From contig JALUNR010000051.1 in NCBI GenBank assembly GCA_027055005.1, positions 1 through 42,656 on the forward strand: 42,656 nt of DNA. Reading direction: 5' to 3'. Below, in pieces: positions 1-15,444 of the stretch (its first letter is position 1; each line of letters begins with the position of its first letter). This DNA is from Campylobacterales bacterium (GTDB taxonomy: Bacteria; Campylobacterota; Campylobacteria; Campylobacterales; QNZT01). The notes under the pieces were generated by a model. The model ran no database searches. It saw only the letters and a program-made list of their open reading frames with translations, and was not told where the DNA came from. The position numbers and the translations under genes are program-made.

Positions 1-75
1 ATCTATCAAGTAAAAAAACCATCTGGTATATTTATATATAAAAGTACAGATAAAAAATAACTTTAAGGTTGTCTT

Positions 76-399
76 ATGAAAAAAATTGCAATATTTTTAA
101 CAATTAGTACTTTTGTATTTGCTGATGTTAATGGCAAAGATGTATTTGAAACTTACTGTTGGGGATGTCATCATCAAACCGCAGTAGCTTTTGGACCTCC
201 CTTTGAACAAATAGCATCAAAAAGAGATGCTAATCAAATAAGAGCTATGATAACAGACCCAAAAACTGTCTCAAAAGTTTTTGGATACAAAAGAAATGCT
301 ATGCCAGCTTTTAAACTAAAAGAGGATGAACTTCAAGCTATAACAAGATATATACTAAGTTATAAGCCAAAAGACACCAACCAAACAAAGGTAAAATAA
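76..399 (+). CDS. nirC: Small periplasmic monoheme cytochrome c, NirC/c55X-like
   Basis: Signal peptide, CWGCH heme motif, distal NAMP Met ligand; stop overlaps the nirJ start. Confidence 0.7.
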   Translation: MKKIAIFLTISTFVFADVNGKDVFETYCWGCHHQTAVAFGPPFEQIASKRDANQIRAMITDPKTVSKVFGYKRNAMPAFKLKEDELQAITRYILSYKPKDTNQTKVK

Positions 400-1520
400 T
401 GTTCAGACTCTCAAATCTACTCTCATCAGTAGTAAATGATAAACCAGTAAGAGAGCTAAATGGAAGCATAGCTATCTGGAACTTTACAAACAGATGTAAC
501 CTAAACTGCCTTCACTGCTACTCAAAATCAGGACTCGATGCAACTGATACTTTAAGTTTTGAAAAGATAGTAGAAACTCTACCAAAACTAAAAAAGACTG
601 GAGTAAAGTTTCTAATCTTTAGTGGTGGAGAACCATTAACAAGAAAAGATATATATGATATAGCTGATGAGTGTAAAAAACTTGGAATCATAACCTATCT
701 ATCAACAAATGGACTCTATGTTGGAAAAAACAATGCCCAAAAAATCCTAGATACTTTCAACTATATAGGTATATCTATTGATGGTGATGAAGAGAGTCAT
801 GACTACTTTAGAGGATTAAAGGGAAGTTTTAAAGAATCCCTAAAAGCAGTAGAACTACTAAACAGTTTTCATCAAACAAAAGTAGGAATAAGATTTACTA
901 TCACAAAAGATACTATAAAGGATTTAGAGTTTATTTTTAAACTAGCTGAAGAAAAAATGATACCAAAAGTATATATTTCTCACTTAGTTTATAGTGGTAG
1001 AGGGCTTGATAATCTCAAAATGGATATAACAAAACAAGAGAGAAAAAAGGCTGTTAATTTCATCATTGATAAAGCATTTTACTACTTTGAGAACAATATA
1101 GATATAGAGATAGTAACTGGAAATATGGAGGTCGATGCAATACTATTTTTAGATAGATTTTCTCAAAAATATCCTCACCTAAAAGGTGAAATGACAAAAA
1201 GATTAAAAAAATGGGGTGGGAATAGTGCCGGGAGGAAACTCTTAAATATAAATCCAGAGGGTGATGTAAAACCAGACCCTTTTTTCCCACTTACTATTGG
1301 AAATATTTTAAAAGATAATTTCCTTGATATATGGCAAGACAAACCAAGTGAGCTTTTGCTAAGATTAAGAGAACATCCAAGAAAACTAAAAGGTATATGC
1401 CAAAATTGTGAATATTTGGATATTTGCAACGGTGGAAGTAGAAGCAGAGCAAATGCAATACATGAAGACCTTTGGGAGAGTGATCCTAGTTGTTATATAA
1501 AGGGAGAAAATAATGGGTAA
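399..1520 (+). CDS. nirJ: Radical SAM heme d1 biosynthesis protein NirJ
   Basis: MFRLS N-terminus, CNLNCLHC SAM cluster motif, SGGEP, HLVYSGRG, WGGNSAG, C-terminal CxxC-x5-C...DPSC auxiliary cluster; next to cytochrome c and SUMT genes. Confidence 0.85.
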   Translation: MFRLSNLLSSVVNDKPVRELNGSIAIWNFTNRCNLNCLHCYSKSGLDATDTLSFEKIVETLPKLKKTGVKFLIFSGGEPLTRKDIYDIADECKKLGIITYLSTNGLYVGKNNAQKILDTFNYIGISIDGDEESHDYFRGLKGSFKESLKAVELLNSFHQTKVGIRFTITKDTIKDLEFIFKLAEEKMIPKVYISHLVYSGRGLDNLKMDITKQERKKAVNFIIDKAFYYFENNIDIEIVTGNMEVDAILFLDRFSQKYPHLKGEMTKRLKKWGGNSAGRKLLNINPEGDVKPDPFFPLTIGNILKDNFLDIWQDKPSELLLRLREHPRKLKGICQNCEYLDICNGGSRSRANAIHEDLWESDPSCYIKGENNG

Positions 1521-2247
1521 AGTCTATCTAACAGGAGCAGGACCTGGAGATATAGAACTACTAACAGTAAAAGCTTTAAAAGTAGTACAAAAGGCTGATG
1601 TTATCATTTATGATAGATTAGCAAATCCTGAGATATTAAAAGAAGCAAAAGATGGATGTGAATTTGTTTTTGTAGGTAAAGAGGATTCTCACCATACCTT
1701 GCCTCAAGAAGAAATAAATGAAGTTATATATCAAAATGCCCTAAAATACGAAACAGTAGTAAGACTAAAGGGTGGAGATCCTTTTGTATTTGGGAGAGGT
1801 GGAGAAGAAGGCTTATATTTAAAAGAAAGAAATATAAGATTTGACTTTATTCCTGGTGTTACTTCAGCTATTGCTGTTCCAGAATATGCTGGTATCCCTG
1901 TAACTCATCGAGGCGTAACAGTATCATTTAGAGTAGTAACTGGACATGAAAATCCTAAAAAAGAAAAGTCACAAATCCCATGGGGAAACTATAAAAGTGA
2001 TGATACTATTATATTTTTGATGGGTCTTCATCGTCTAAAATTTATAACAAAAAAACTCATTGAGATTGGAAAACCAAAAGATTATCCAGTAGCTGTTATA
2101 AGTAAAGGCACTACAAAAGATGAAAAAACTGTTATAGGAACTCTAAGTGACATTTATGAAAAAGCAAAAGATTTGCCAACTCCTGCTCTTATAGTAGTGG
2201 GAGAAGTTGTAAAACTTCATGATAAACTAAGTTGGTGGGAAAAATAA
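1513..2247 (+). CDS. cobA: Uroporphyrinogen-III C-methyltransferase (CobA/SUMT; NirE role by context)
   Basis: GAGPGD, YDRL, RLKGGDPFVFGRGGEE, PGVTSA, GIPVTHRG motifs. Confidence 0.93.
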   Translation: MGKVYLTGAGPGDIELLTVKALKVVQKADVIIYDRLANPEILKEAKDGCEFVFVGKEDSHHTLPQEEINEVIYQNALKYETVVRLKGGDPFVFGRGGEEGLYLKERNIRFDFIPGVTSAIAVPEYAGIPVTHRGVTVSFRVVTGHENPKKEKSQIPWGNYKSDDTIIFLMGLHRLKFITKKLIEIGKPKDYPVAVISKGTTKDEKTVIGTLSDIYEKAKDLPTPALIVVGEVVKLHDKLSWWEK

Positions 2248-2287
2248 GCAAATTTAGATATAATTATATAAAAGATAAGGAACAGTT

Positions 2288-2596
2288 ATGTTAAAGTTTG
2301 CCATATTTTTTTCTTTAGTTGTTTTCCTATGTGCTAAAGATACTAATAATACTAAAGTACTCATAAAAGATACTAATGTCACAAAAAAGACAACCTCTAA
2401 TCTTTCTAAAAATAAACTACTACAAAAACACTTAAAAGAACAAATGAAAAGAGAAGCCAAATATGCTAAAGAAAAAATGTTCTACAAGGGAAAAGATTAT
2501 AACTTAACTGAACATCAAGTAGATCCAAACTCACTTAAAAAGATAAAACCCATTGAACCTGAATACGATTTTGATATGGATCATGTTTATGATTGA
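2288..2596 (+). CDS. Hypothetical exported protein
   Basis: AAGGA RBS, hydrophobic signal peptide, Lys-rich middle, acidic/aromatic C-terminus. Confidence 0.7.
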   Translation: MLKFAIFFSLVVFLCAKDTNNTKVLIKDTNVTKKTTSNLSKNKLLQKHLKEQMKREAKYAKEKMFYKGKDYNLTEHQVDPNSLKKIKPIEPEYDFDMDHVYD

Positions 2597-3072
2597 TTTT
2601 TAGATTCCTTAAAAAGTTTTTTGAAATCATTTTTTTCCTCAAAAGTTTTAAAAGCACCTTCTGGTATAAAATAATGATTTGGATACTTAATTATCAAAAT
2701 TCCACTGCCTACATCTACTAAGTTTTCTATTTCATTCCATTTCCAAAACAGATTATCATGAAAGAATTTTATACCCTCACTATCCACAAGTAAAGATATA
2801 TCTTTTTCACCTTCAAGATTTTTTAAAAACCTTCTCTTAGCTATTATTTTTTTACCATAATACCAATAAAACAGCATGACAGTTGCAAAAATTAATACAG
2901 CTACTTTAGCTTTTAAAAGTGCACCAACTATACCATATTGCAAAATAGCAATAAAAAACCAACCTATATACTTTTTTGCACTATGATTAAATTCATATTT
3001 ATAAAGTTCATCAAAACTATTTTTTGCTACTTCTTTATCCCATACAAAATCTAATTTTAACTCTTTAGACAT
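2587..3072 (-). CDS. Two-TM membrane protein, YcxB-like
   Basis: Two TM helices followed by a W.EI...YFIPE.AF...EE...F C-terminal pattern; start moved to ATG 3072, which overlaps the end of the upstream gene (track start 3093). Confidence 0.6.
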   Translation of the reverse strand: MSKELKLDFVWDKEVAKNSFDELYKYEFNHSAKKYIGWFFIAILQYGIVGALLKAKVAVLIFATVMLFYWYYGKKIIAKRRFLKNLEGEKDISLLVDSEGIKFFHDNLFWKWNEIENLVDVGSGILIIKYPNHYFIPEGAFKTFEEKNDFKKLFKESKNQS

Positions 3073-3670
3073 GTTCTTCATTTTCCTCTTCATAAATATC
3101 TTCTCTACATATCACTTTTTCTCTCTCCAAGTCATCTAAAAGAATTTTAGTTTCATCATATAACTTATAGAAAATTTTTGAGTTTTTATTGAAAAGTTTT
3201 TTTTGTTTTTTTGCATATAACCAAGCAAATAAAATAGAACTTGCAAAAACAGCATATATCCATAATTGCCACTCTTTTAAATCCAATAAAACTATAAAAT
3301 ACTGTACAGAAAAAAGTACAAAAAACTCTATTGAAAAGATTATTACTAAAACTGAACTATGTTCAAAATCTAGTGTATATTTTTCTATATCTTTCATCTT
3401 TGCAAGATTGTTATTTATTTTTTCTACTTTTTTATGATAAGCATCATTTATCAAAGATTTATCTATTTTATCTATATGAATATTACTTAAATTATACTCA
3501 ACATTTAACTGCTTATACTCTTCTAAAATCTCTGGATTATCTTTCATAATTTTAAGTATTTCTTCAACACTTAACCTATTTTTACCAGCTAATTTTTCAG
3601 CATCCTGGAGGATTAAATTATAAAGACCCACCTCTTTAATCTCTCTTGCAACTCTTTTTAGATTTGTCAA
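3065..3670 (-). CDS. Hypothetical membrane protein (two TM helices)
   Basis: 201-aa ORF with TTG start and AGGAAG RBS; hydrophobic hairpin at residues ~107-153. Confidence 0.75.
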   Translation of the reverse strand: MTNLKRVAREIKEVGLYNLILQDAEKLAGKNRLSVEEILKIMKDNPEILEEYKQLNVEYNLSNIHIDKIDKSLINDAYHKKVEKINNNLAKMKDIEKYTLDFEHSSVLVIIFSIEFFVLFSVQYFIVLLDLKEWQLWIYAVFASSILFAWLYAKKQKKLFNKNSKIFYKLYDETKILLDDLEREKVICREDIYEEENEEHV

Positions 3671-3695
3671 TATTACTTCCTGATTTTTTATAATA

Positions 3696-3729
3696 CTAAG
3701 ATTACACCTTCAAAGAGATGTAACCTTAG
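3696..3729 (-). terminator. 14-bp stem-loop downstream of the atypical heme-copper oxidase (terminator or stabilising hairpin)
   Basis: Minus strand CTAAGGTTACATCT-CTTTGA-AGGTGTAATCTTAG pairs with two G-U pairs; the following U-tract is weak. Confidence 0.55.
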
Positions 3730-3740
3730 ATTTAGTAGTT

Positions 3741-5414
3741 TTATGCTTTGTGATTTTCAGCTATAGTTTCTGGTTCTATACCATAACTTGCTGTTTTATC
3801 TTCTGCAGGTAAAAATATACCTATAAGACCTTTAATTCCTACTGACATTACTATATTGTATAAAAATATAAACCAAGCTATAAGTACCATACTTCCACAA
3901 ATAGCAGCATATATCATAAGTGGATTAAATTCACCATGAATATATAAGTGTCTTCTAAGCATTCCATCAAGTCCTGCCATACCACCAAATGCACCCATTC
4001 CAATACCACCTATTAGATATAACCAAAAGTGAGCATTTGAAAGTTTTTTAGAATACATCTCAGTATTATTTGTAACAATTGGCCATAGTACATATACAGC
4101 ACTATAAAGTGTCATATAAAGTCCAACTATTAAAGCTATATGAACATGCGCCATAATAATCCATTGAGTATTATGTAAAACTCTATTCATACCCATATCT
4201 GCTTGAATAATAGCAGCTGGAACTGCTAAACCAAACCCAACAAGTCCACCAAGAAGGTATTTTAACTCCATAGTCATTTTAAGTGGTCTAGCTTTCCATA
4301 GAGTAACTAAAGTGATAAATAGTGCAAGTCCTTGAGTTAGAAGCTCAAATGCTGTAACCATCTCTCCACTTATTAGTTTCATCATCTCAGGTTGTCCTTG
4401 ATCAGCTAAAAGGTGATGAGACCAAACCATCCAAGAAACTAAAAGTTCAAGCATTAAGGCAGCTCTTGCAACATTTTCCATAAATAGTTTTTGACCTGTT
4501 ATCAAAGTAGCTAACAAATACCAAGAACCAGCAACATATATAAGAACAAGACCGTCAGCAACTAGATCAAGTCCCCACCAAAAGTAGTTTTTATATAAAA
4601 GAGAATCAATAACTGTTACATCAAGAGCATGTCCACTAGCATCAAAAACTAAATACACAAGTACTAAAACACCTGCACTTAAAATAACTATCGCATCCAA
4701 GAAAGTATCAACTGTACCTCTAAAAATAGCAACAACAGGAAGAGAAAGTGCTGGTTCTTTTGTATAAGGCGGCTTACCTGCAAGTTTATGTAAAAGATTT
4801 AACATACCATCTATACCAAAACCACTTATCAAAAGCTCTTTTGTGGTTTTATTTTTATGAACACCAACTCTTTGAAATATAGTCGCATAAATATTATATA
4901 TAAAGCCAAGTGTTCCAAGCATAATCAAAGCAACACCTATTATAAATACAATACCACCAACAACACTAAACTGTTTAGTATCAGCAGGAAGTGGCCAATA
5001 TAAAGTATATAATGGAGCATATTGCCATACAAAAGCTGCTATCCAAGCCATAGCAGTACCTACTGTTATAAGTATCCAAACTATATTTGCCAACTTTACA
5101 CTATAAAGAGGTTTTTTAGTCAAAAATGGAACTAAAAACATAAAAGCACCAAAAACCAACTGATATGTAGAACCAAAAATACCTACTATTGGGTGAACAG
5201 TCATAATAGAAAAATAATGTTTAGGATGATTAAACATCTCTGGTAGAGGATTAACTGGACCAGTTTGCACCATTTTCATTATCATACCTTCAATAGCAAC
5301 TAATCCAAAAAATAAAAAACTCATTACAACTGCACGCAGTGTTACTTTTTGCAATGCATTTAAGCTTTTATGATCAAAATTTGTACCATTTATTAGATTT
5401 TTTGTAAAACTCAT
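3741..5414 (-). CDS. Heme-copper oxidase superfamily subunit I, gNOR-type putative nitric oxide reductase
   Basis: Multi-TM protein with H74 (helix II), WSHH333-334, HVH423-425 and GMLRR; helix VI reads YFWWGLDLVADG instead of HPEVY or HLWVE. Confidence 0.85.
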   Translation of the reverse strand: MSFTKNLINGTNFDHKSLNALQKVTLRAVVMSFLFFGLVAIEGMIMKMVQTGPVNPLPEMFNHPKHYFSIMTVHPIVGIFGSTYQLVFGAFMFLVPFLTKKPLYSVKLANIVWILITVGTAMAWIAAFVWQYAPLYTLYWPLPADTKQFSVVGGIVFIIGVALIMLGTLGFIYNIYATIFQRVGVHKNKTTKELLISGFGIDGMLNLLHKLAGKPPYTKEPALSLPVVAIFRGTVDTFLDAIVILSAGVLVLVYLVFDASGHALDVTVIDSLLYKNYFWWGLDLVADGLVLIYVAGSWYLLATLITGQKLFMENVARAALMLELLVSWMVWSHHLLADQGQPEMMKLISGEMVTAFELLTQGLALFITLVTLWKARPLKMTMELKYLLGGLVGFGLAVPAAIIQADMGMNRVLHNTQWIIMAHVHIALIVGLYMTLYSAVYVLWPIVTNNTEMYSKKLSNAHFWLYLIGGIGMGAFGGMAGLDGMLRRHLYIHGEFNPLMIYAAICGSMVLIAWFIFLYNIVMSVGIKGLIGIFLPAEDKTASYGIEPETIAENHKA

Positions 5415-6025
5415 TTATTACCTCCATCTTTACATCCAACTACTTCAACGAAATCTTTAACTTGCATTAAATCTTTTCCATCCTCACTATATTGAGCTGG
5501 TCCAGAATACTCAGTAGATGTCATATCAAAAACTCCATTATGATTAAATGTCCATAACATTACATTTTTATCCAAAATACTAGTAACATCAGTACCAGGA
5601 TTTACTTGCATTTGAGTTACAAGCGAACCATCTTTTCTAAATAAACCAAATCCATAAACTAAATCTTCACTTCTAATATCAAACTTGATTGTTTGACCAC
5701 ATTGGATAGTGATTTTTTTAGGAATTCCTACCCATTTATGATCTTTAATCTTAAAGCTATATGAAGCATCAGGTTTAATATGATCTCTTGAAATATCTTG
5801 AGATACCCAAGGTATACTATTATATGTAAATATATGATGTCCTACACCACCTGCAACTAAAAATGCAATATAACCATAAAATGGTATTCGCACAACTGAC
5901 TTAACCTTTTCTTTTCTTGTTAAGTTATAACCAAACCATGCAACAATAGATATAATCATCACTGCATAGATGGTATAAGCAACTTCGTGAAAAGCCAACA
6001 ACTCAATAGAGCTCTTAAATGTCAT
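5411..6025 (-). CDS. Heme-copper oxidase subunit II homolog lacking CuA ligands
   Basis: Two N-terminal TM helices plus a cupredoxin-like domain (SEDLVYGFG, MQVNPG, STEYSGP); ATGA overlap with subunit I; AAGGAG RBS. Confidence 0.85.
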   Translation of the reverse strand: MTFKSSIELLAFHEVAYTIYAVMIISIVAWFGYNLTRKEKVKSVVRIPFYGYIAFLVAGGVGHHIFTYNSIPWVSQDISRDHIKPDASYSFKIKDHKWVGIPKKITIQCGQTIKFDIRSEDLVYGFGLFRKDGSLVTQMQVNPGTDVTSILDKNVMLWTFNHNGVFDMTSTEYSGPAQYSEDGKDLMQVKDFVEVVGCKDGGNK

Positions 6026-6084
6026 CTTTTTCTCCTTATAATTAAAATAACTATGTATTATAAGATAAAAAATAATTTTTTTAC

Positions 6085-6098
6085 TTGATTTATATCAA
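6085..6098 (-). promoter_or_regulatory. Fnr/Dnr/Nss-type box of the atypical NOR promoter (-10 TATAAT at 6062-6057)
   Basis: Perfect TTGAT-ATAA-ATCAA read on the minus strand, 22 nt from TATAAT, matching class II geometry. Confidence 0.85.
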
Positions 6099-6153
6099 CA
6101 AGAAATAGTTTTAGTGTTTATTTTTTAGACATTAAAACATCAAGCATTTTCTA

Positions 6154-6339
6154 TTAAAAAAATTTTAAAAAGATACCTATAAATAAAGACAACAATACTG
6201 TTATAGCTAAAACAATGCTATTATATATTTTTGAAGAAAAATTAAAGTTTTCAAACAATAATTCTGTAATTTTTATAGCAGGAAATATCATAAAAAATAA
6301 CATAACAACAGCAAATACAAGTGTTAAAACTATATTCAT
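6154..6339 (-). CDS. Small two-TM membrane protein
   Basis: 61 aa, almost entirely hydrophobic; ATG overlaps the stop of 6339..6710. Confidence 0.7.
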   Translation of the reverse strand: MNIVLTLVFAVVMLFFMIFPAIKITELLFENFNFSSKIYNSIVLAITVLLSLFIGIFLKFF

Positions 6340-6710
6340 TATTTTATGCCATAATAATTTTTTAAAAAATTCAATTCTTTATCATCTTTTATTTTTATAC
6401 TTTGAAAAACTTTATTACCATCAAATATAATTAATTTTTTATTAGCAATTTTTAAATGAGCTTTGCCCCATTTTTTTTGTAATCTATCCATATCATGAAA
6501 AACTTCCATATTTGATGGTTTTTCTTTAAAATTTTTATCATTTTTACTTTTTATGACAAGTCCACCTAAACTTTTTTCAAAATAATATGGAGAATATTTT
6601 TTTATTTTTAAATATATTTTATTTTTATTCTCACCTTTAGAATTTATAAAAGCGCTATAAGATATGAGAAAAAAAGCAACTATTAAGGCAAAAGGCAAAT
6701 ACTTATTCAT
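6339..6710 (-). CDS. Hypothetical membrane-anchored/periplasmic basic protein
   Basis: AAGGA RBS, N-terminal hydrophobic helix, 123 aa. Confidence 0.75.
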   Translation of the reverse strand: MNKYLPFALIVAFFLISYSAFINSKGENKNKIYLKIKKYSPYYFEKSLGGLVIKSKNDKNFKEKPSNMEVFHDMDRLQKKWGKAHLKIANKKLIIFDGNKVFQSIKIKDDKELNFLKNYYGIK

Positions 6711-6765
6711 TTTAATTCCTTATATTAATCTTTCTTTAGGATATAAAAATTTTATAAAAATAACA

Positions 6766-6779
6766 TTGATAAATATCAA
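6766..6779. promoter_or_regulatory. Fnr/Dnr/Nss-type box between divergent genes
   Basis: Perfect TTGAT-AAAT-ATCAA; 22 nt to TAGCAT (6802-6807, preceded by TGn) on + and 22 nt to TATCCT (6743-6738) on -. Confidence 0.8.
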
Positions 6780-6824
6780 CCAATTAATAAAAAAGATTTG
6801 TTAGCATAACAAAAAGGAGATAGG

Positions 6825-7190
6825 ATGAAAGAATTTTTTATTTTAGAAGGTGCATATTTAATATTGGCTTTTTTGATACTTTTAGTAACACTATTTGTTA
6901 CAACAAGACCTTTTATGAGCAAAAAAGCCCCCAAAAAAGGACTTATATCTGTTGGGTTAGTATTGGCTTTTTTCATCTTTTTACACTTTTACTTGACAAC
7001 AAACAGAATAAATAGCGTAAAAAAAGCTTTTTTAAATGGAGAAAAAATTATTTGTGAAAGCAGAGCTAATACTAAAGCTGCACAATCAATAATAATAAAA
7101 AAAGATTTTGGATGGTCAATAAAAGGTGATTATTTTATATCTCCAAACTATATTAGAGACTTTCATATAGCTAGATGTATAATATATTAA
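6825..7190 (+). CDS. Hypothetical membrane protein (two TM helices plus a small domain with two Cys)
   Basis: AAGGAG RBS; two hydrophobic helices; IICES and IARC cysteines. Confidence 0.78.
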   Translation: MKEFFILEGAYLILAFLILLVTLFVTTRPFMSKKAPKKGLISVGLVLAFFIFLHFYLTTNRINSVKKAFLNGEKIICESRANTKAAQSIIIKKDFGWSIKGDYFISPNYIRDFHIARCIIY

Positions 7191-7192
7191 AA

Positions 7193-7228
7193 TTACTTAT
7201 ACTTATTATCATAATAACTTATAAGTAA
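7193..7228. repeat. Nested inverted repeat next to the nor promoter box
   Basis: TTACTTATA-C-TTATTAT-C-ATAATAA-CT-TATAAGTAA: 9-bp outer arms and 7-1-7 core. Confidence 0.6.
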
Positions 7229-7230
7229 AA

Positions 7231-7244
7231 TTGATATAAATCAA
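7231..7244 (+). promoter_or_regulatory. Fnr/Dnr/Nss-type box of the norCB operon promoter (-10 TATAAT at 7267-7272)
   Basis: Perfect TTGAT-ATAA-ATCAA, 22 nt from TATAAT. Confidence 0.85.
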
Positions 7245-7310
7245 TACTATTTCCCCAATGTTACTATATAATTTTATTGCTAATATAAAATATGTAACTA
7301 AAGGATTAAA

Positions 7311-7649
7311 ATGGAACAAATTGTTGTATGGCATAACATAGCACCATCTGAGTTTTTAAGGATCTTTGTTGTGTCCACTCTTGTTCTAGTTTTTGGAGTA
7401 GGATATGCTGGTACCATAACCCTCTCTAAAATGCAATACTTTTCCAAAAAGTGGCAAATCCTCGGTTATATATTTTGGGCACTACAAACATACTGCTTAT
7501 ATGATATGTCCATTTTAATCCAAAGTAGCCATTTTACCACAAAAGTTTTAATGGTTACTATGATTGTTTATCTCTTTGTACCTCATCTATACTTCTATCT
7601 AATAGATGAAAGTGAAAAGAGATATGAAAAAAATGGCCATCCTCATTAA
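7311..7649 (+). CDS. Small three-TM membrane protein leading the norCB operon
   Basis: AAGGA RBS, three hydrophobic segments, ends 26 nt before norC. Confidence 0.78.
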   Translation: MEQIVVWHNIAPSEFLRIFVVSTLVLVFGVGYAGTITLSKMQYFSKKWQILGYIFWALQTYCLYDMSILIQSSHFTTKVLMVTMIVYLFVPHLYFYLIDESEKRYEKNGHPH

Positions 7650-7675
7650 AAGTAGTAAAATTTTAAGGAGGAAGT

Positions 7676-8341
7676 ATGGAAGAAAATCTTTCAGTGTGGA
7701 CGAGTATATCGTTTTGGCGAAGATCAGCAGCTTGGGTTACTGGTTTTGCAACTATTCTTTTAATTTGGCTAACATTTGACACTATTGGTCAAATTACTAT
7801 GGGTACAGATAAAGATTTGCAAAGTGGAGTAACCAAAAGAGTACCAGCTCCTACTGTAATCAATTATCATATTGATTACAAAATGAGTCAAAAAAGAGGT
7901 CATGAAGTTCCTGTTATTGGTCATAAAGAGCCTTTTTTTGGTAAAGAGTGGTCAATTAAAGATGCTAGAGCATTATTACACTTAGGAAAACTTACAGTTC
8001 AAGCAAAAAACTGTATGGATTGTCATACACTTTTAGGAAATGGGGCTTATTATGCACCAGATCTTACAAAAGCATGGCTTGATCCAAAGTGGAACAATGG
8101 AACTATGGAAGGTATAACTGGTAAAAAAACAAAAGAAGAAGCAATAGCTGAGTTTTTACAACATCCATCAAGATACCCAACTCATGCAAGAAAAATGCCA
8201 AATCTTGGTATAACTGCCAAAGAGGCTCAAGGTATAGTTGCATTTTTAAAACATATGAGTTCAATAGATACAAACGGTTTCCCTAGAAATTTCTCAAAAA
8301 CTGTTGACCAATATAAAGCAGGAGGAACAAATGCTCACTAG
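7676..8341 (+). CDS. norC: Nitric oxide reductase cytochrome c subunit NorC
   Basis: N-terminal TM, NCMDCHTLLGNGAYYAPDLT, RKMPNLG Met ligand; AAGGAGG RBS. Confidence 0.95.
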   Translation: MEENLSVWTSISFWRRSAAWVTGFATILLIWLTFDTIGQITMGTDKDLQSGVTKRVPAPTVINYHIDYKMSQKRGHEVPVIGHKEPFFGKEWSIKDARALLHLGKLTVQAKNCMDCHTLLGNGAYYAPDLTKAWLDPKWNNGTMEGITGKKTKEEAIAEFLQHPSRYPTHARKMPNLGITAKEAQGIVAFLKHMSSIDTNGFPRNFSKTVDQYKAGGTNAH

Positions 8342-9755
8342 TATAAAAACAGATAATATATCGCCAACTAAAAAACTGGGGATGATGTACTTTAGAGTTG
8401 CTATTGTTCTTTTTGGAGCACAACTTCTAATGGGTTTAATCGCTGCCATACAATTTATATATCCAAATTTTTTATTTGAGATATTTGATTTTTCAGTAGC
8501 AAGGATGGTTCATATAAATGCACTTGTAGTATGGATGCTATATGCTATGATTGGTTCAGTTTATTATATGCTTCCTGATGAAACAGGAGAAGAAGCAGTA
8601 GGACTTGGACTTGGAAAACTAGCTTTTTGGGTACTTACTGCTGCAGTTGCAGTTGTTGTTTTAGTATTTATTTTTATCCAAGTTGGACCTGGTAAAGAGA
8701 GTACTATTTGGTTTATAAATGAAGGTAGAGAGTATATAGAAGCTCCAAGATGGGCTGATATAGGTATAGTCGTTGTGGTTTTAATCTTTTATTATAATGT
8801 TTTCTTTACATTCTTAAAAGGTAGAAAAACTGGAATCATGACTGTCATGATAGCCAACCTTTTAGCTCTAGCTGGTCTCTACTTAGCAGGTATGTTCTTC
8901 ACTGACAATATTTCTATGGATCAGTACTGGTGGTGGTGGGTTATCCACTTATGGGTTGAAGCTACTTGGGAAGTTTTTGTTGGTACCCTAGCTGCTTATG
9001 CTCTTATCAAAATAATCTCTGCAAAAAGAGAAATAGTTGAGATGTGGTTATGGATAGAGGTATTAATGCTATTTGGTTCAGGAATTTTAGGTCTTGGACA
9101 TCACTATTTTTGGATAGGTACTCCTGAGTATTGGTGGGAGATTGGTGCACTTTTTTCTTCACTTGAACCAGTTCCACTAGTTGCTATGTTTGTTCATGTA
9201 CTATATGATTGGGGTAAAGAACAAGGTGCAAATGGAAATAAACCAGCTATTATGAATGGTCCTGCTATGGCTTGGATTGTTACAAATGCATTTGGTAACT
9301 TCCTTGGTGCTGGTATATGGGGATTTTTCCATACATTGCCTCAAGTAAATATCTATACTCACGGTACTCAGTTTACTGCAGCTCATGGACACTTAGCTTT
9401 CTTTGGAGCTTATGCAACTATTCTTATAGGTATGATGTATATGGGTGTTCAAGGAGCATATGGTGTAAAACAAATGAAAGCAACTTTCAACTCTAAAATG
9501 GCAATCTTTTTGATAACATTTGGTGTTATGGGTATGACTATTGCTCTAACCATCGCTGGATATGAGCAAGTTTTAGTTGAAAGAGCTGAACTAGGTGGCG
9601 GTTGGGATGCATTCTTTACTGCTCAAAACTTACCTTGGTATGTTCAAGCACAAGTTTGGAGAACAATCATGGGTATAGTAACATTTATAGGTTTTGTATA
9701 TCTTGTGTTGGATCTTCTAACTATAGGAACAAAAGCAAAATCTCAAGAAGTATAA
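8331..9755 (+). CDS. norB: Nitric oxide reductase catalytic subunit NorB (cNOR)
   Basis: RMVHIN, EGREYIE, WWWVIHLWVEATWE, GHHYFWIG, SLEPVP, THGTQFTAAHGHLAFFGAY; ATG 8331 follows GGAGG (track start is TTG 8304). Confidence 0.96.
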   Translation: MLTSIKTDNISPTKKLGMMYFRVAIVLFGAQLLMGLIAAIQFIYPNFLFEIFDFSVARMVHINALVVWMLYAMIGSVYYMLPDETGEEAVGLGLGKLAFWVLTAAVAVVVLVFIFIQVGPGKESTIWFINEGREYIEAPRWADIGIVVVVLIFYYNVFFTFLKGRKTGIMTVMIANLLALAGLYLAGMFFTDNISMDQYWWWWVIHLWVEATWEVFVGTLAAYALIKIISAKREIVEMWLWIEVLMLFGSGILGLGHHYFWIGTPEYWWEIGALFSSLEPVPLVAMFVHVLYDWGKEQGANGNKPAIMNGPAMAWIVTNAFGNFLGAGIWGFFHTLPQVNIYTHGTQFTAAHGHLAFFGAYATILIGMMYMGVQGAYGVKQMKATFNSKMAIFLITFGVMGMTIALTIAGYEQVLVERAELGGGWDAFFTAQNLPWYVQAQVWRTIMGIVTFIGFVYLVLDLLTIGTKAKSQEV

Positions 9756-9764
9756 GGAGAAAAT

Positions 9765-9923
9765 ATGAATTTTCATTTAATAGAACCATTTACAGATGTA
9801 AATCATAGTTTTTTCGGTATGTTAAATCAGGGTCCTTTGACTTTGACTATATTTTTACATACTGTTATAATCCTTCCTATGTTTTGGATTTACTTTAGTG
9901 AAAAGAAAAAACTAGGAAAATAA
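9765..9923 (+). CDS. 52-aa single-TM protein directly after norB (not in ORF track)
   Basis: AAGGAG RBS overlapping the norB stop; MNFHLIEPFTDVNHSFFGMLNQGPLTLTIFLHTVIILPMFWIYFSEKKKLGK; ends at the terminator. Confidence 0.8.
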   Translation: MNFHLIEPFTDVNHSFFGMLNQGPLTLTIFLHTVIILPMFWIYFSEKKKLGK

Positions 9924-9960
9924 AATATTAAAGGGGGATATCCCTCTTTAATATTATTTT
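9924..9960. terminator. Intrinsic terminator of the nor operon, probably bidirectional
   Basis: AATATTAAAGGGGG-ATAT-CCCTCTTTAATATT hairpin followed by a T-tract, between convergent genes. Confidence 0.8.
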
Positions 9961-9967
9961 TAAACTC

Positions 9968-10372
9968 TTATCTCACCCATGTTCCTCTTTTAAAACTACT
10001 TCTACCTCTACTTATAATTCGTACATTTATACTATAATCATATATATCTACTTTTATTATTGGATTACCATATAATATATCTTGTTTCGCACTCCAACTA
10101 ACAGAACCATTTTTTATCATCCTTTCCAACCTAGCCCTATTTCTTTTATTACTAAATATAGAATCCCAAGTATCAGCACTTTGTCTAATTCTTCTAATAT
10201 GATAATTAAATCTATCCTGTCTAATAATAGCAGCTACACTATGCAATCTAACTCCTCTACTATTATAATGATCTACATCAGCAAGTTTTGCATAATAAGT
10301 ACCAATATATCCTGCATTTAAAATAGATACACTAAAACCTAAACTCAACAACAATCTTGTTAAATTTCTCAT
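9968..10372 (-). CDS. Hypothetical secreted basic protein
   Basis: AAGGAGG RBS, signal peptide ending LNA, DHYNSRG...AIIRQDRFNYH block. Confidence 0.8.
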   Translation of the reverse strand: MRNLTRLLLSLGFSVSILNAGYIGTYYAKLADVDHYNSRGVRLHSVAAIIRQDRFNYHIRRIRQSADTWDSIFSNKRNRARLERMIKNGSVSWSAKQDILYGNPIIKVDIYDYSINVRIISRGRSSFKRGTWVR

Positions 10373-10399
10373 TTTTCCCTCCTTATTGTGAAATTTAAT

Positions 10400-11125
10400 T
10401 TAATTTTTTTTTATCAATTCTGGTCTATATTCAAAGTGCATAGTATCAAAATGCTTCCATTTGCCACCCCATATAAATCCTTCACTTTCAAAAACTTTTA
10501 CTATTTCCAAAGGAATTTTATTTTTATAATTTTTACTCCATTTCCAATAATTAGCATATTTTGTATTTAAATCTATAGCTATTCCAAAGGAGTGTGCACT
10601 AAGTCTTTTTGTTCCAGATATATATCTCCAATTAAAGGTACCACCTAATGGAAATAAAAATTTTTCAATATCTGACTTCTTTCTTATTAAATTTTTCAAC
10701 TTCTTTTCGACATTTTTTAACTTAATCACTACATCATTTAACTTATTTATTTTTATCTTTTCACCAAACCAATTTATAGTTACTAAATTTTTATATACAG
10801 TATTTTTATTTTTTCCATATATTTTTTTAAATAATTGTTCATTTCTTATACGACCAGCATCATTTCTATTTAAGTTTTTAAAATTTTTAGGATACTTATA
10901 ATAAAATATATCCTCTATATCAGGATTATTTAATAATTTATCAAAATTTTTCTTCTTACCATCATCATAAATAAGTGTACTACCATCAGTAAAGATAATA
11001 TAATTTTTTCTACACCCTTTTATATCTTTATATTTTTTTATTAAAATATCCACATTCTTATCACATCTTGCATATAAATTTATAGCCAAAAACATCAAAA
11101 TACAATATAAAATATTTTCCTTCAT
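10400..11125 (-). CDS. M15-family zinc metallopeptidase (peptidoglycan D,D-/L,D-peptidase-like)
   Basis: Signal peptide; GGTFNWR, SAHSFGIAID (SxHxxGxAxD), GFIWGGKW.HFDTMHFEYRPE. Confidence 0.88.
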   Translation of the reverse strand: MKENILYCILMFLAINLYARCDKNVDILIKKYKDIKGCRKNYIIFTDGSTLIYDDGKKKNFDKLLNNPDIEDIFYYKYPKNFKNLNRNDAGRIRNEQLFKKIYGKNKNTVYKNLVTINWFGEKIKINKLNDVVIKLKNVEKKLKNLIRKKSDIEKFLFPLGGTFNWRYISGTKRLSAHSFGIAIDLNTKYANYWKWSKNYKNKIPLEIVKVFESEGFIWGGKWKHFDTMHFEYRPELIKKN

Positions 11126-11190
11126 ATTATATTATAACTCTATATAGTAAAAATAATTTTAAGTTTTTAAAATATATTTAATTTTAAGTT

Positions 11191-12042
11191 TTACGTAGTA
11201 ATAAATTTCTTTCTTATTCTATGACTCTCATAAGTTCCTAATATTTTAACTTCAGTAGAGAAAAAATCTAACTCTTCTAAAGCTCTTTTCATACAATCAG
11301 AATCAATATGCCCCTCTATATCAGCATGAAATCCAGTAGCATTTAGTGCGTTTTCAGCCGAGTAACTCTCTAATTTTAAAAGATTTATCCCATTTGTAGC
11401 AAAACCACCTAAGGCTTTATAAAGCGAGGCAGGAATATTTCTTACTTGAAAGATGATAGATGTTGAATAACTCTTACTTTTGTTAAATTTAGGTATTTCT
11501 TTATTTTTTGAAAGTATAAAAAATCTAGTAGTATTCCCTTTTATATCTTCAAAATGCTCTTGTAAAATCTTTAAATCATAAATTTTAGCTGCTAATGATG
11601 AAGCGATAGCTCCAAAAGATTTATCATTTAACTCTTTTATCTCTTTTGCACTTCCAGCAGTGTCTAGTTTTGCTATCGGTGTTAGATTTAGCTTACTTAT
11701 ATTATGAGAGCATTGTGCTAAAGCTTGTGGATGTGAAGCGACATATCTTAAATTTTCTATTTTTGATCCCTTTATTCCAAGCAAACAGTGAACTACTGGT
11801 TGAAAATGTTCCCCTACCACATAAAGATTCATCTTTGGAATAAGTCTATATATCTCCTCTACCCTTCCAGCAGTAGAATTTTCAAGTGGAATCATAGCAT
11901 ATATAGCTCTTTCATCCTCTACCATTCTCATAGCTTCGCTAAAAGTCTCACAAGCAACAGCATTTAAGTTTGGATAGGCACTACGACAAGCTTGCTCACT
12001 ATAAGCTCCACTAACACCTTGATAAGCTATTTTTGTAGTCAT
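11191..12042 (-). CDS. Monofunctional prephenate dehydratase with ACT domain
   Basis: IAYQGVSGAYSE, PLENSTAG, SHPQALAQC, NTTRF, LLKLESY; no chorismate mutase domain; ATG 12042 chosen because track start 12129 lies inside porB. Confidence 0.9.
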   Translation of the reverse strand: MTTKIAYQGVSGAYSEQACRSAYPNLNAVACETFSEAMRMVEDERAIYAMIPLENSTAGRVEEIYRLIPKMNLYVVGEHFQPVVHCLLGIKGSKIENLRYVASHPQALAQCSHNISKLNLTPIAKLDTAGSAKEIKELNDKSFGAIASSLAAKIYDLKILQEHFEDIKGNTTRFFILSKNKEIPKFNKSKSYSTSIIFQVRNIPASLYKALGGFATNGINLLKLESYSAENALNATGFHADIEGHIDSDCMKRALEELDFFSTEVKILGTYESHRIRKKFITT

Positions 12043-12082
12043 GATTTTCTTTTGTTTTGAAGTTATAAGGGAAGAAGAGTTT

Positions 12083-13033
12083 TTAAACTCTTGCTTCCTC
12101 TCTTCTTTGTAGGTACTCCCATCTAGCATCTACTCTTTTTTGCCACTCTTCAAGAACATGAGCATTTTCAGGTTTAAACAAGTGTTTAAATCTTCCTTGA
12201 GATGCTAAGTAATCTTTAACAGGGATTACTTTTTTAGGTCTGTAAAGGATGTTTAACTCTGTACCATCTATTATTTCATATAGAGGAAAAACTAAACTCT
12301 CTGTTGCTAAATCTGATATATCGATAGTTTGATTTGGAGCAAATTTCCACTCAGTTGTACATGCACTCATAGCATTTATATAACAAGGTCCTTCATTAGC
12401 TAATGCTTTTTGAAAAGATTTAACCATAAGTTTCCATTTGTTTGGTGCTACTTGAGCAACATAAGAGGCTCCATTAGCCGCCATAATACCAACCATATCT
12501 TTTTTGTTTTGCTTCTCTCCATAACTTACGCGACCTGCTGGACTTGTTGTAGTTGATGCACCTATGGGAGTAGATGAACTTCTCTGACCTCCAGTATTTG
12601 CATAAACTTCATTGTCAAGACAGATATATGTAAAGTCATGACCTCTCTCAACAGCTCCACTTAACCACTGAAAACCTATATCATAAGTACTTCCATCTCC
12701 ACCAAATGCAACAAATTTTACACTTCTATCTGGATCTTTTAAAGTTCCTTTTCTTTTTCTAGCTTTATACATAGCCTCTGCACAACTAGCAGTAGTAGCA
12801 GCATTTTCAAATCCAACATGTATCCAACTTGTATCCCAAGAAGTATATGGATAAACTGCTGTTGAAACTTCTAAACATCCTGTATTTGTAGAGATAACCA
12901 AGTCATCATCTGTACAGTTCATAAGCTCTCTTACAATGATAGAGTGAGCACACCCTGGACAAAGTAGGTGAGCTCCTTCAAATCTATCATTTGAAGTTGA
13001 AAACTCTTTTAAATTTTTTATTATTTTACTCAT
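12083..13033 (-). CDS. porB: Pyruvate:ferredoxin/flavodoxin oxidoreductase beta subunit
   Basis: HLLCPGC, TGCLEV, GGDG...DNEVYANTGGQ TPP-binding motif. Confidence 0.95.
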   Translation of the reverse strand: MSKIIKNLKEFSTSNDRFEGAHLLCPGCAHSIIVRELMNCTDDDLVISTNTGCLEVSTAVYPYTSWDTSWIHVGFENAATTASCAEAMYKARKRKGTLKDPDRSVKFVAFGGDGSTYDIGFQWLSGAVERGHDFTYICLDNEVYANTGGQRSSSTPIGASTTTSPAGRVSYGEKQNKKDMVGIMAANGASYVAQVAPNKWKLMVKSFQKALANEGPCYINAMSACTTEWKFAPNQTIDISDLATESLVFPLYEIIDGTELNILYRPKKVIPVKDYLASQGRFKHLFKPENAHVLEEWQKRVDARWEYLQRREEARV

Positions 13034-13045
13034 AACACTCTCCCC

Positions 13046-14272
13046 CTACTTTTGCTCAAAAAATTCTAAAGTTGGACCTCTTAGTCCACTAAATTTTTGT
13101 ACTTTACCGATAATCTTACCAGCTTTTGCACACTCAGCCAAATCTTTATATATACCTTTTAAATGCTCTTGAGTCATATCTCTACCACCAAGACCATAGA
13201 TATAGTTTACCATAGGAACAAAGTTTCCACTACTGTACATTGCAGCCGCTACTTCATTATAAAGCATACCCATAGCACCACCTGGTGCACTTCTATCAAG
13301 ACAAGCTACCGCTTTTACATTTGAGAGAGCTTCTCTTATATCATCAAAAGGGAATGGTCTTAGTACTCTTGGAGCAACAACACCAGCTTTTATACCATCT
13401 TTTCTCATCTCTTCTGCAGCCATTACAGCACTCTCAACAGTAGTTCCAAGAGCAACGATAGCTACTTCTGCATCTTCCATCAAGTAACTTTCAACTCTGT
13501 TATATTTTCTACCAGTCTTTTTTTCAAACTCTGCAAAAACTTTCTCGATAACATCTCTACTATCCATCAAAGCTTTATGTTGTTTAGCTTTATGCTCAAA
13601 GTGCCAATCCTCTTCAGTTTGAGCACCATAAGTAACAGCTCTACTAAAATCAAGTAAATCATCTTTTGATTTATATTCACCAATAAAAGCATAAGCATCT
13701 TCATCTTGTAAAGGCTTAACCTTTTGGGCAGTATGAGAACATATAAATCCATCTTGATGAACTGCAACAGGAAGCCTTACACTCATATCCTCGCCTATTT
13801 TAAATGCACAAAGCATCAAATCATAAGATTCTTGTGGGTTAAATGCACAAAGATTAATCCAACCTGCATCTCTTGTTAAGTACATATCTGAGTGATCACC
13901 ATTTACATTTAATGGTGCAGCTAAAGCTCTGTTTACCATTGCTAGTACGATAGGAAGTCTCATACCACTTGCTTGATAGAGTACTTCTACCATCAAAGCT
14001 ATACCTTGAGAACTACTTGCAGTTGCAACTCTACCACCAGCTGCAGCTGCACCAACACAACCACTCATAGCAGCATGCTCACTCTCAACCATAACAAACT
14101 CACCATCGATATAGCCATCAGCTAAAAACTTAGCATAGTTTTGAACTGTTGGAGTTGATGGTGTAATAGGATATGCCGCAACAACATCAATCTGAGCTTG
14201 TCTCATAGCTTGTGAAAAAGCCATGTTACCATCCCAAACTTCTACCTCTTGTAACTCTAATTTCTCTGCCAT
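13046..14272 (-). CDS. porA: Pyruvate:ferredoxin oxidoreductase alpha subunit
   Basis: AAYPITPST, VESEHAAMS, NRALAAP, YGLGGRD. Confidence 0.95.
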   Translation of the reverse strand: MAEKLELQEVEVWDGNMAFSQAMRQAQIDVVAAYPITPSTPTVQNYAKFLADGYIDGEFVMVESEHAAMSGCVGAAAAGGRVATASSSQGIALMVEVLYQASGMRLPIVLAMVNRALAAPLNVNGDHSDMYLTRDAGWINLCAFNPQESYDLMLCAFKIGEDMSVRLPVAVHQDGFICSHTAQKVKPLQDEDAYAFIGEYKSKDDLLDFSRAVTYGAQTEEDWHFEHKAKQHKALMDSRDVIEKVFAEFEKKTGRKYNRVESYLMEDAEVAIVALGTTVESAVMAAEEMRKDGIKAGVVAPRVLRPFPFDDIREALSNVKAVACLDRSAPGGAMGMLYNEVAAAMYSSGNFVPMVNYIYGLGGRDMTQEHLKGIYKDLAECAKAGKIIGKVQKFSGLRGPTLEFFEQK

Positions 14273-14274
14273 TA

Positions 14275-14676
14275 TTAATCCTTACTCTTTTTCTTTTTCT
14301 CAGGCCACTTAGCAAGTGCATCTTCATTTTTTTCATTTTCACCAAACATTAAAAGTGATTTTGGATTTGTAGGACAAACTTCCACACAAACTCCACAACC
14401 TTTACAGTGATCATAATCAACACCAATCATTTTTTTATCTCTACTTATGATAGAAGTATCTGGACAATATACCCAACAATTTTGACAATCTATACATATA
14501 TCTCTATTATAAACTGGCTTTATTACTCTCCAATCTCCAACATAAGCTTTAAAAGAGTTCCACTCGGCATAAGGTCTATCTTCTTGTTTGGTTTCTACCG
14601 CTTTATCAAATTCACCATCAAATGAAAAAAGCAGTGTCCCATCATTTACTTCATCCCAACCTACATATTTACTCAT
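14275..14676 (-). CDS. porD: Pyruvate:ferredoxin oxidoreductase delta subunit (2x[4Fe-4S])
   Basis: GDWR..KP, CIDCQNCWVYCP, CKGCGVCVEVCP. Confidence 0.95.
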   Translation of the reverse strand: MSKYVGWDEVNDGTLLFSFDGEFDKAVETKQEDRPYAEWNSFKAYVGDWRVIKPVYNRDICIDCQNCWVYCPDTSIISRDKKMIGVDYDHCKGCGVCVEVCPTNPKSLLMFGENEKNEDALAKWPEKKKKSKD

Positions 14677-14685
14677 TTTTTACCC

Positions 14686-15243: not shown

Positions 15244-15444
15244 GAACTCTCCTTATATTTAGATTAAGTTACACTATGTTACATAATTACTCTTAATATT
15301 GGCTTCTTATTTTAAATAAGAAATATAATATTTTTTTATCTTTTAAATGCTTTTTTTACTTTTTAAAGATTACTAAAATAATATTTTCCAAAAGTTGTTT
15401 TTAATATTTTTACAAGTTACTTTTTGTAACAACATCAAATATAA

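Follow-up and report, generated by a model that had tools for sequence, protein, structure and literature searches.

The locus

The stretch of DNA analyzed here, hereafter the window, is the 42,656-nucleotide (nt) contig C51 of a 1.79-Mb Campylobacterales genome (~30% G+C; 250 contigs), whose closest relatives are hydrothermal-vent Campylobacterota metagenome-assembled genomes. Near its left end, two operons point away from each other. The one on the − strand encodes an atypical heme-copper enzyme of the gNOR type, a proposed family of nitric oxide (NO) reductases (NORs) common in sulfidic vent bacteria that make nitrous oxide (N2O); the one on the + strand encodes a cytochrome c-dependent NO reductase (cNOR). 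The 1.3-kb region from which the operons appear to diverge contains two small divergent gene units besides, and each operon would be read from an activator-dependent promoter in which a TTGAT-N4-ATCAA box stands 22 nt before a TATAAT hexamer and no usable −35 element is present. Quite probably, this locus is the NO-reduction part of a denitrification island, its two operons being under the same Crp/Fnr-type activator as the nap and nirS genes. Window genes were taken from a listing of open reading frames (ORFs) together with Pfam and NCBIfam scans, the locus was compared with 80 related loci whose gNOR subunit I is 79-99% identical, and 301 genomes of the order Campylobacterales, each at least 80% complete, were surveyed. 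The features of the two operons and of the region between them are as follows.

2587-3093, − strand: orf168, fourth gene of the gNOR operon, a membrane protein found by tblastn, with a weakly YcxB-like C-terminal part
3065-3670, − strand: orf201, third gene of the gNOR operon, an N-terminal soluble part plus a membrane helix
3741-5414, − strand: gNOR catalytic subunit (subunit I), 557 aa, Pfam COX1 E 6.1e-51
5411-6025, − strand: gNOR subunit II, putatively cupredoxin-like, without a CuA site, 204 aa; 4-nt stop/start overlap with subunit I
6057-6098, − strand: putative gNOR promoter (box TTGATATAAATCAA at 6085-6098, 22-nt spacer, TATAAT at 6062-6057)
6154-6339, − strand: orf61, small membrane or exported protein with hydrophobic segments
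6339-6710, − strand: orf123, small membrane or exported protein with hydrophobic segments
6766-6779, no strand assigned: third Crp/Fnr box, TTGATAAATATCAA, between the divergent orf123 and orf121
6825-7190, + strand: orf121, small membrane protein with hydrophobic segments; homologs in loci L011 and L066 (41-48% identity)
7231-7272, + strand: putative cNOR operon promoter, 5′ of orf112 (box TTGATATAAATCAA at 7231-7244, 22-nt spacer, TATAAT at 7267-7272)
7311-7649, + strand: orf112, first gene of the cNOR operon, a membrane protein of 112 aa, with homologs before norC
7676-8341, + strand: NorC, cytochrome c subunit of cNOR, matching PDB 3o0r_C (E 3.4e-10), with CxxCH (Cys113, Cys116, His117)
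8304-9755, + strand: NorB, catalytic subunit of cNOR, 483 aa, COX1 E 3.3e-60, matching 3o0r_B over its full length (E 2.6e-92)
9765-9923, + strand: orf52, small one-helix protein after norB, homologs 78-89% identical
9924-9955, + strand: terminator-like hairpin closing the cNOR operon, a 14-pair stem followed by a T run

The two divergently oriented COX1 proteins (3741-5414 on the − strand, 557 aa; 8304-9755 on the + strand, 483 aa) show no significant pairwise similarity (BLASTP E 2.1), though both match COX1, and they account for two of the three COX1 matches in the whole genome, the other being a cbb3 oxidase. From the start of gNOR subunit II (6025) to that of norC (7676) is 1.65 kb, with four small ORFs in between. 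An earlier, sequence-only reading of this DNA had described two dissimilar heme-copper enzymes set back-to-back about 1.6 kb apart, a description that these matches and distances bear out.

The atypical enzyme as a gNOR

The gNOR family was named in 2008 (Hemp & Gennis 2008; Sievert et al. 2008; both as cited in PMC8756737). Here and below, papers are cited for the portions of their text that were accessible. In these, gNOR is marked by an Asp in place of one active-site His and by a cupredoxin subunit lacking the CuA ligands (PMC11214002), and an appendix table lists it with a D at the Tyr position, without a proton channel, and in the hosts Sulfurimonas, Sulfurovum, and Persephonella, citing Sievert et al. 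2008 (PMC8756737). Judged by its residues, the atypical enzyme of the window bears this published signature, with Asp283 for the His, Asp287 at the Tyr position, and a subunit II without CuA.

Only two full-length representatives of 50% clusters were found with more than 30% identity to subunit I (59% and 44%), and it was aligned with these and with more distant heme-copper oxidases (HCOs). D283 falls in the column of the active-site His (G-H-P motif) in five other HCO representatives, and D287 in the column that, four residues on from that His, holds the cross-link Tyr in other HCOs. H74, H423, and H425 align with the heme ligands of other HCOs, the H333/H334 pair is kept, and all seven residues (H74, D283, D287, H333, H334, H423, H425) are invariant in a 36-sequence alignment. 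Compared with solved structures, the single sequence gave no phmmer match at E 0.001 and the 36-sequence profile was needed; its best match is subunit I of the Thermus thermophilus ba3 oxidase (E 3.8e-13), and it places D283 on the His of the H-P-I motif of the ba3 chain. The nearest solved relatives of subunit I are thus B-family oxidases, the best being ba3 (PDB 1EHK, 1XME; E about 1e-12), to which it aligns in the heme ligands and the HH pair. It differs from ba3 in having Asp and Asp at the positions of the His-Tyr cofactor and in lacking CuA.

Subunit II has no match in the Pfam scan of the window proteins, and its match to the CuA-domain chain of ba3 subunit II is weak (E 0.065). It carries a Tyr where the ba3 chain has His in DV(L/I)HGF. 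There are only two Cys residues, at 109 and 198, and no C-x3-C motif; because they stand 89 residues apart, the protein cannot form a CuA site. Its Atlas feature neighbors are COX2-family clusters, which we treat as a lead only, and together with the weak ba3 match they make a cupredoxin fold a lead rather than an assignment.

Since the cofactor positions are Asp and Asp and CuA is lacking, O2 reduction by the known mechanism is not expected of this enzyme. The reaction of gNOR would be NO reduction, with Asp283, His333, and His334 as ligands of a heme/non-heme-metal site. Because neither a heme c nor a CuA offers an entry point, its electrons would most likely come from menaquinol; a quinol donor is proposed for the family in PMC11214002, and conserved quinol-binding residues have been proposed in the literature. 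The accessible text of that paper also counts gNOR in 156 Genome Taxonomy Database (GTDB) genomes, describes its habitats as sulfidic, proposes that it tolerates sulfide, and holds that several NOR families can coexist in one organism. Compared with the family as described in the accessible portions of PMC11214002 and PMC8756737, with its sulfidic hosts, neither core subunit here shows any difference.

The cNOR operon and the small genes

By its residues, the + strand enzyme is a bona fide cNOR, and its nearest well-described counterpart is NorCB of Pseudomonas aeruginosa (PDB 3O0R). NorB matches that structure over its full length, and the motifs HLWVE..WE, GHHYFW, LEP, and AAHGH are aligned and conserved relative to 3o0r_B; their residues are presumably the His ligands and the conserved Glu of the FeB site. 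NorC shares the CxxCH with its counterpart and is longer (221 aa vs. 146 aa in the 3O0R chain). The operon differs as well, opening with a 112-aa membrane protein and ending with a conserved 52-aa protein. No norQ, norD, or norE was seen within the window.

Neither of these additional genes is peculiar to the window. Homologs of orf112, which has no Pfam or NCBIfam match, lie directly 5′ of norC in L011, L026, L028, and L066 (37-68% identity). Homologs of orf52 follow norB immediately in L026, L028, L050, and L066 and are better conserved than NorB itself; orf52 may be an unannotated small subunit of cNOR. L011 has homologs of orf123 and orf61 arranged as here, and L066 has them close to cNOR (38-52% identity).

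The cNOR-like putative N2O reductase family of PMC11214002 was considered for the + strand enzyme and rejected on the full-length 3o0r_B match and the intact FeB motifs. A separate group of NorB-like proteins of ~460 aa, 37-41% identical to NorB here, occurs in other Campylobacterales (genomes G143, G206, G084, G099, G135, G265, G248, G261, G255, G192, and G280) and has no member in this genome. That group may be the cNOR-related putative N2O reductase family of PMC11214002.

A shared promoter design

The sequence-only reading had noted the same 14-mer at the same 22-nt spacing from TATAAT before both enzymes, and the agreement is exact: TTGATATAAATCAA occupies 6085-6098 and 7231-7244, each copy also being an exact instance of the palindromic TTGA-N6-TCAA form. 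Allowing up to two mismatches, TTGATATAAATCAA is found 10 times in the window vs. a shuffle mean of 2.5, and none of 100 shuffles reaches 10. The hexamers 17 nt 5′ of the two TATAAT elements, AGTAAA and ATACTA, make poor −35 elements, so activator-dependent promoters fit. Provided that the −10 is used as read, the center of the box would fall near −41.5, the class II position.

Three points had escaped the earlier reading. There is a third box, TTGATAAATATCAA; the + strand promoter precedes orf112, not norC directly; and the gap holds the four small ORFs. At a distance of 22 nt, the third box is accompanied by weaker −10-like hexamers, TATCCT on its − side and TAGCAT on its + side. At the corresponding position, L011 has an exact box and L066 a box with one mismatch, and boxes also stand 5′ of the orf112 homologs in L011, L026, L028, and L066. 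In the nearest relative, locus L001, the gNOR box and −10 are kept while the flanking sequence has diverged.

The gNOR promoter is conserved well beyond the nearest relative. Ten of the 80 related loci were dropped for an incomplete subunit II match or fewer than 160 nt upstream, leaving 70 usable. In 51 of them, the 200 nt 5′ of subunit II contain a box that is exact or has one mismatch, vs. 1.5 loci predicted by how densely such boxes are spread through the remainder of these loci. Of the 51 boxes, 43 are exact, and a −10-like hexamer follows at 21-23 nt in 49.

The proposed regulon and its candidate activator

Genome-wide counts were set against an analytic first-order expectation and 100 shuffles. 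The exact box TTGAT-N4-ATCAA occurs 24 times, where 9.1 are expected and the highest count among 100 shuffles is 15. The full composite, an exact box followed after 22 nt by TATAAT, is far more selective: it occurs four times in 1.79 Mb, compared with 0.02 expected and a maximum of one in 100 shuffles. These four sites precede gNOR, orf112-norCB, napA (C40:12627), and nirS (C40:4261), and nowhere else in the genome is the composite found. Near-perfect copies, with one mismatch, stand 5′ of a nirF-like gene (C40:1223) and of the gene that follows nosZ (C13:434). The proposal of the sequence-only reading, which put the atypical enzyme in the denitrification regulon, gains in silico support from these counts, four composites vs. 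0.02 and boxes in 51 of 70 loci vs. 1.5.

The most likely activator, going by gene position and motifs, is the Crp/Fnr protein encoded beside nap (P0271), probably of the Dnr/Nss type because it combines an E-x2-SR helix with the lack of an N-terminal cysteine cluster. P0271 has cNMP_binding and HTH_Crp_2 domains, with ETLSR in the helix-turn-helix, and its sole Cys is at position 119. An E-x2-SR recognition helix is what a cognate regulator of this type would carry. A Crp/Fnr box stands 50 nt 5′ of the start of P0271 itself, and genes for homologs (36-45% identity) lie a few kb or less from gNOR in L003, L008, L011, L062, and L094, directly upstream in L003. A second Crp-like protein (on contig C250) was considered as the regulator and rejected; its similarity to the nap-linked protein is limited to BLASTP E 0.003 over 36 residues, and no homolog of it was found in the gNOR loci.

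The layout recalls control by Nss/Dnr proteins as known from Wolinella succinogenes (NssA/B/C) and Nitrosophilus labii. In the latter, the mapped transcription starts of napA, norE, and nosB each follow the first base of an exact TTGA-N6-TCAA box by 48-49 nt, two Nss-like Crp/Fnr genes adjoin nap and nor, and Nss regulators are reported to be responsive to nitrate, NO, and N2O, according to the accessible text (PMC11539149, 2024). Here, the box (14 nt), spacer (22 nt), and −10 (6 nt), together with the usual 6-7 nt to the start, add up to the same 48-49 nt. The likeness extends to boxes before the nap, nor, and nos units and to a Crp/Fnr gene beside nap (PMC11539149, in its accessible portions); it is a likeness of box layout, gene position, and motif. 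The set differs in adding the gNOR operon, nirS as a unit of its own, and the small genes at the third box, and in leaving nosZ without a box.

TTGAT-N4-ATCAA is a common FNR/Dnr half-site pair, and a general consensus of this kind does not tell NO, another N-oxide, or anoxia apart. The box might then report general anoxia through an FNR-like O2 switch, in which case gNOR would merely sit in the anaerobic regulon and its substrate would be little told by its promoter. Exact boxes just before a Redoxin-family gene (C236:18944) and ymdB (C40:13380) fit such a switch, as does the fact that a regulator's ligand is not readable from its sequence. What makes this account quite unlikely is that P0271 has only Cys119 and no N-terminal Cys cluster and that only four operons, all for N-oxide reductases, have the full composite with its 22-nt spacing and perfect −10. 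The homologous Nss regulators, moreover, are reported to answer nitrate, NO, and N2O (PMC11539149, accessible portions).

The boxes before ymdB and the Redoxin-family gene have a further peculiarity. Behind both (C40:13380-13393 and C236:18944-18957) comes an almost identical sequence, GAAAAAATT(T)TAAGG.T.AAAAA, which leads straight into the start codon of the respective gene. They may be repressor sites or part of a shared leader, as they lie too near the start for a class II layout. On contig C13 (locus L085, 1-4507), nosZ (536-3139, − strand) is preceded by a response-regulator-like gene, its upstream region contains TTAAC...GTTAA-like repeats, and the one-mismatch box at 434-447, with its 22 nt and TATAAT, precedes the next gene downstream of nosZ.

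The cNOR cluster as an indel

The nearest relative, L001, has a subunit I that is 99% identical and was taken as part of genome G297 on the strength of identity and gene order. Over positions 1-6127 and 11230-15371 of the window, the two sequences run collinear at ~90% nucleotide identity, and L001 has only 350 nt in place of what lies between:

6128-11229, no strand assigned: 5.1-kb segment absent from the nearest relative, containing orf61, orf123, orf121, the cNOR operon, orf134, and an M15 peptidase gene

Homology ends at the pheA stop codon and, at the other edge of the segment, ~30 nt past the gNOR box. No norB match was found in either same-genus genome. In sequence terms, the cNOR cluster is therefore a dispensable 5.1-kb indel. 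G297 (99% complete, 6% contamination) has COX1 matches only to cbb3 and gNOR, and its nirS is present at 96% identity. Because of this COX1 repertoire, gNOR would be the sole heme-copper candidate in G297 to remove the NO made by NirS.

The sequence-only reading had taken the back-to-back arrangement and the nir linkage as features worth following across species; as a general trait they did not hold. Where at least 5 kb is available on each side (22 loci), only 6 loci have a nir or nor gene nearby; over all 80 loci, cNOR lies within the locus in five and some nir gene in nine. Other neighbors of gNOR include nap accessory genes with an MFS transporter (L058) and flagellar or biosynthetic genes (L024, L041, L073). 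It is an even question whether the two operons are neighbors merely through a recent insertion or deletion, their adjacency being accidental and functionally meaningless and each module bringing its own box. The replacement of 6128-11229 by 350 nt in the nearest relative, the scarcity of cNOR within the fetched loci (5/80), and the varied flanks of gNOR are what such an accident would leave. Set against it, L011 repeats the window order including the small genes, L026 and L028 have the gNOR and cNOR operons as a tight divergent pair sharing a 283-bp region with one box each, and the two enzymes co-occur across genomes (68/83 vs. 36/218, though related genomes are not independent). Such an accident is compatible with joint control of both operons by the activator of nap and nirS.

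Distribution in Campylobacterales

In the survey of 301 genomes, cNOR was counted at 60% identity or more, which excluded 14 weaker norB matches (31-41%) that are either qNOR-like or members of the separate NorB-like group. Absences mean not found with this query, and related genomes are not independent. So counted, gNOR is present in 83 of the 301 genomes (24 of 85 genera), cNOR in 104, and nirS in 65. Most gNOR-bearing genomes also carry cNOR (68/83), compared with 36 of the 218 genomes without gNOR, and 48 of the 83 carry nirS. Nearly all genomes with nirS have gNOR or cNOR (64/65), five of them having gNOR and no cNOR. Family f18 has cNOR in 19 of 20 genomes, gNOR in 13 of 20, and, with this query, nirS in none of 20; its members either have NO reductases without a cd1 nitrite reductase or use another nitrite reductase.

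Ten of the 83 gNOR-bearing genomes have neither cNOR nor nirS, which places gNOR outside canonical denitrification there, and three of the ten (G113, G174, G246) belong to one genus and are complete or nearly so. Such genomes would suit an enzyme that mainly detoxifies NO or acts on another substrate, with cNOR as the respiratory NOR and the pairing of the two serving protection, and so would the position of the gNOR operon among unrelated genes in most loci. The family, besides, is flagged as uncharacterised (PMC11214002, accessible portions). We nevertheless hold a chiefly protective or other-substrate role to be rather improbable, if a little less so than a pure anoxia response. Five nirS-bearing genomes have gNOR and, by this query, no cNOR; G297, with its COX1 matches to cbb3 and gNOR only, leaves gNOR as the sole heme-copper NOR candidate; and gNOR shares its promoter design with nap and nirS.

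A proposed scheme for joint control

The preferred reading, in which both NOR operons share the activator of nap and nirS, can be put as a short scheme. The nap-linked Crp/Fnr protein would act as the activator, on a signal that may be an N-oxide, low O2, or both, and from the predicted starts it would switch on the nitrate, nitrite, and both NO reductases together. Of the latter, cNOR would take its electrons from cytochrome c, and gNOR probably from menaquinol.

Several observations weigh against this reading. Besides the ten genomes just described and the generality of the FNR/Dnr consensus, the majority of the 24 exact genome boxes lie inside genes or before unrelated genes, nosZ has no Crp/Fnr box within ~100 nt, and 19 of the 70 usable loci have no box before gNOR at up to one mismatch. 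Biochemically, moreover, the gNOR family is the one flagged as uncharacterised (PMC11214002, as far as accessible). In its favor, gNOR has its activator site in common with nap, nirS, and cNOR, and dozens of species have kept that site; this offers independent contextual support for a role of gNOR in N-oxide respiration. That gNOR has a non-redundant role beside cNOR is a conjecture; the pairing is common (68/83), but cNOR is a dispensable indel.

The literature already describes the gNOR family, its occurrence alongside other NORs, and Nss/Dnr-type boxes 5′ of denitrification genes. New relative to the literature searched, supplements aside, are the placement of gNOR in this regulon, its four-gene operon, and the cNOR indel between close relatives; the search, which took in accessible text of PMC11214002, returned no paper linking gNOR to a Crp/Fnr box or regulon. 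Nor was gNOR found described there as the sole heme-copper NOR candidate beside nirS, as it is in some genomes. No new kind of system is involved: the locus is a clean new example of known enzyme types joined to a known switch. What it yields is a defined putative promoter, a candidate regulator, a natural genotype with nirS plus gNOR only, and two extra conserved proteins.

Two further genes of the gNOR operon

These two proteins are orf201 and orf168, which follow subunits II and I, in that order, in the − strand transcription unit. In 74 of the 80 loci, subunit I is followed by orf201. The contigs of five of the six negative loci end within ~350 nt of subunit I, so that L047 is the sole real absence; L047 (10001-11662 and downstream) is also the sole locus that has DNA beyond subunit I and neither orf201 nor orf168. 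The match to orf168 lies directly after orf201 in 69 of 80 loci, its start overlapping the orf201 stop by ~8 nt in most. By this conservation of order, the gNOR unit is a four-gene operon. Even in a more distant subgroup, whose gNOR is 59-65% identical, weaker orf201 homologs (25-31%) follow gNOR in three of four fetched loci.

At the protein level, orf201 is nearly always 201 aa long, with a mean column identity of 66% in a 35-sequence alignment and a first membrane helix that is nearly invariant, and no family was assigned to it from Pfam, NCBIfam, or the Atlas. For orf168, the Pfam YcxB match (E 0.004) is below the cut-off, hydrophobic segments span residues 42-75, and the true start is probably the ATG at 3072. 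In the accessible portions of the gNOR literature (PMC11214002, PMC8756737), orf201 and orf168 were not found described as parts of the operon.

Synteny shows that subunit I and orf201 are functionally coupled, as far as gene order can. Whether they also touch was approached by complex prediction with the proteins' own alignments, which gave a score of 0.37 for subunit I with orf201, compared with 0.00 for the best of three controls; at least 89% of the contacts agree between runs, and the partner pLDDT (predicted local distance difference test) is at least 77. Of 157 solved complexes 116 reached the mark used, and of 215 mismatched pairs 2 did; at scores of 0.60 or below, only 18 of the 157 solved complexes reached it, and both passing mismatches fall in that range. 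The prediction thus lends weak support to a physical complex.

A bolder proposal can be built on this operon and on the indel described above, although we are inclined to doubt it. In it, the gNOR of vent Campylobacterota would be a four-subunit menaquinol:NO oxidoreductase with orf201 and orf168 as integral subunits or obligate assembly partners, and it would be the core respiratory NOR, cNOR being a dispensable cassette gained and lost among close relatives. Were this true, the two-subunit picture of gNOR would be incomplete, and N2O at sulfidic vents would be produced largely via gNOR.

The left flank and the remainder of the window

Three + strand genes stand at the left end of the window, beside the gNOR operon.

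76-399, + strand: monoheme cytochrome c in a NirC-like position, Pfam Cytochrom_C E 4e-9, CxxCH (Cys28, Cys31, His32)
399-1520, + strand: NirJ-like radical SAM/SPASM protein (heme d1 synthesis), Pfam Radical_SAM and SPASM, TIGR04051
1513-2247, + strand: uroporphyrinogen-III C-methyltransferase (SUMT), TIGR01469, 300 bits (cut-off 185)

The sequence-only reading had named these nirC, nirJ, and SUMT. A cytochrome c gene, a NirJ-like gene, and a SUMT gene do adjoin the gNOR operon on the + strand; the second name is less secure, as the best NCBIfam match of the 399-1520 protein, TIGR04051 NirJ at 368.6 bits, is under the cut-off of 515. The context supports the NirJ assignment, with SUMT adjoining and nirF-like, nirS, and nirDL genes in the relative L001.

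That reading had also suggested looking upstream of the window for nirS and nirF. Both are on contig C40 (locus L081, 1-14153), whose gene order is the Crp/Fnr gene, napAGHBFLD, nirDL, nirS, a multiheme cytochrome gene, and a nirF-like gene. In L001, a single cluster runs from nirDL, nirS, the multiheme cytochrome gene, and the nirF-like gene on into the cytochrome c gene, nirJ, SUMT, and gNOR. Because of this order, C40 probably abuts the left end of the window, which would give one island of ~24 kb.

The rest of the window is housekeeping in character, encoding a 2-oxoacid:ferredoxin oxidoreductase, hemA, GOGAT, fatty-acid synthesis, and fliFGH. It also contains two prephenate dehydratase genes, at 11191-12129 and 41581-42645, which differ in their domains, one having a PDT domain only and the other chorismate mutase, PDT, and ACT domains.

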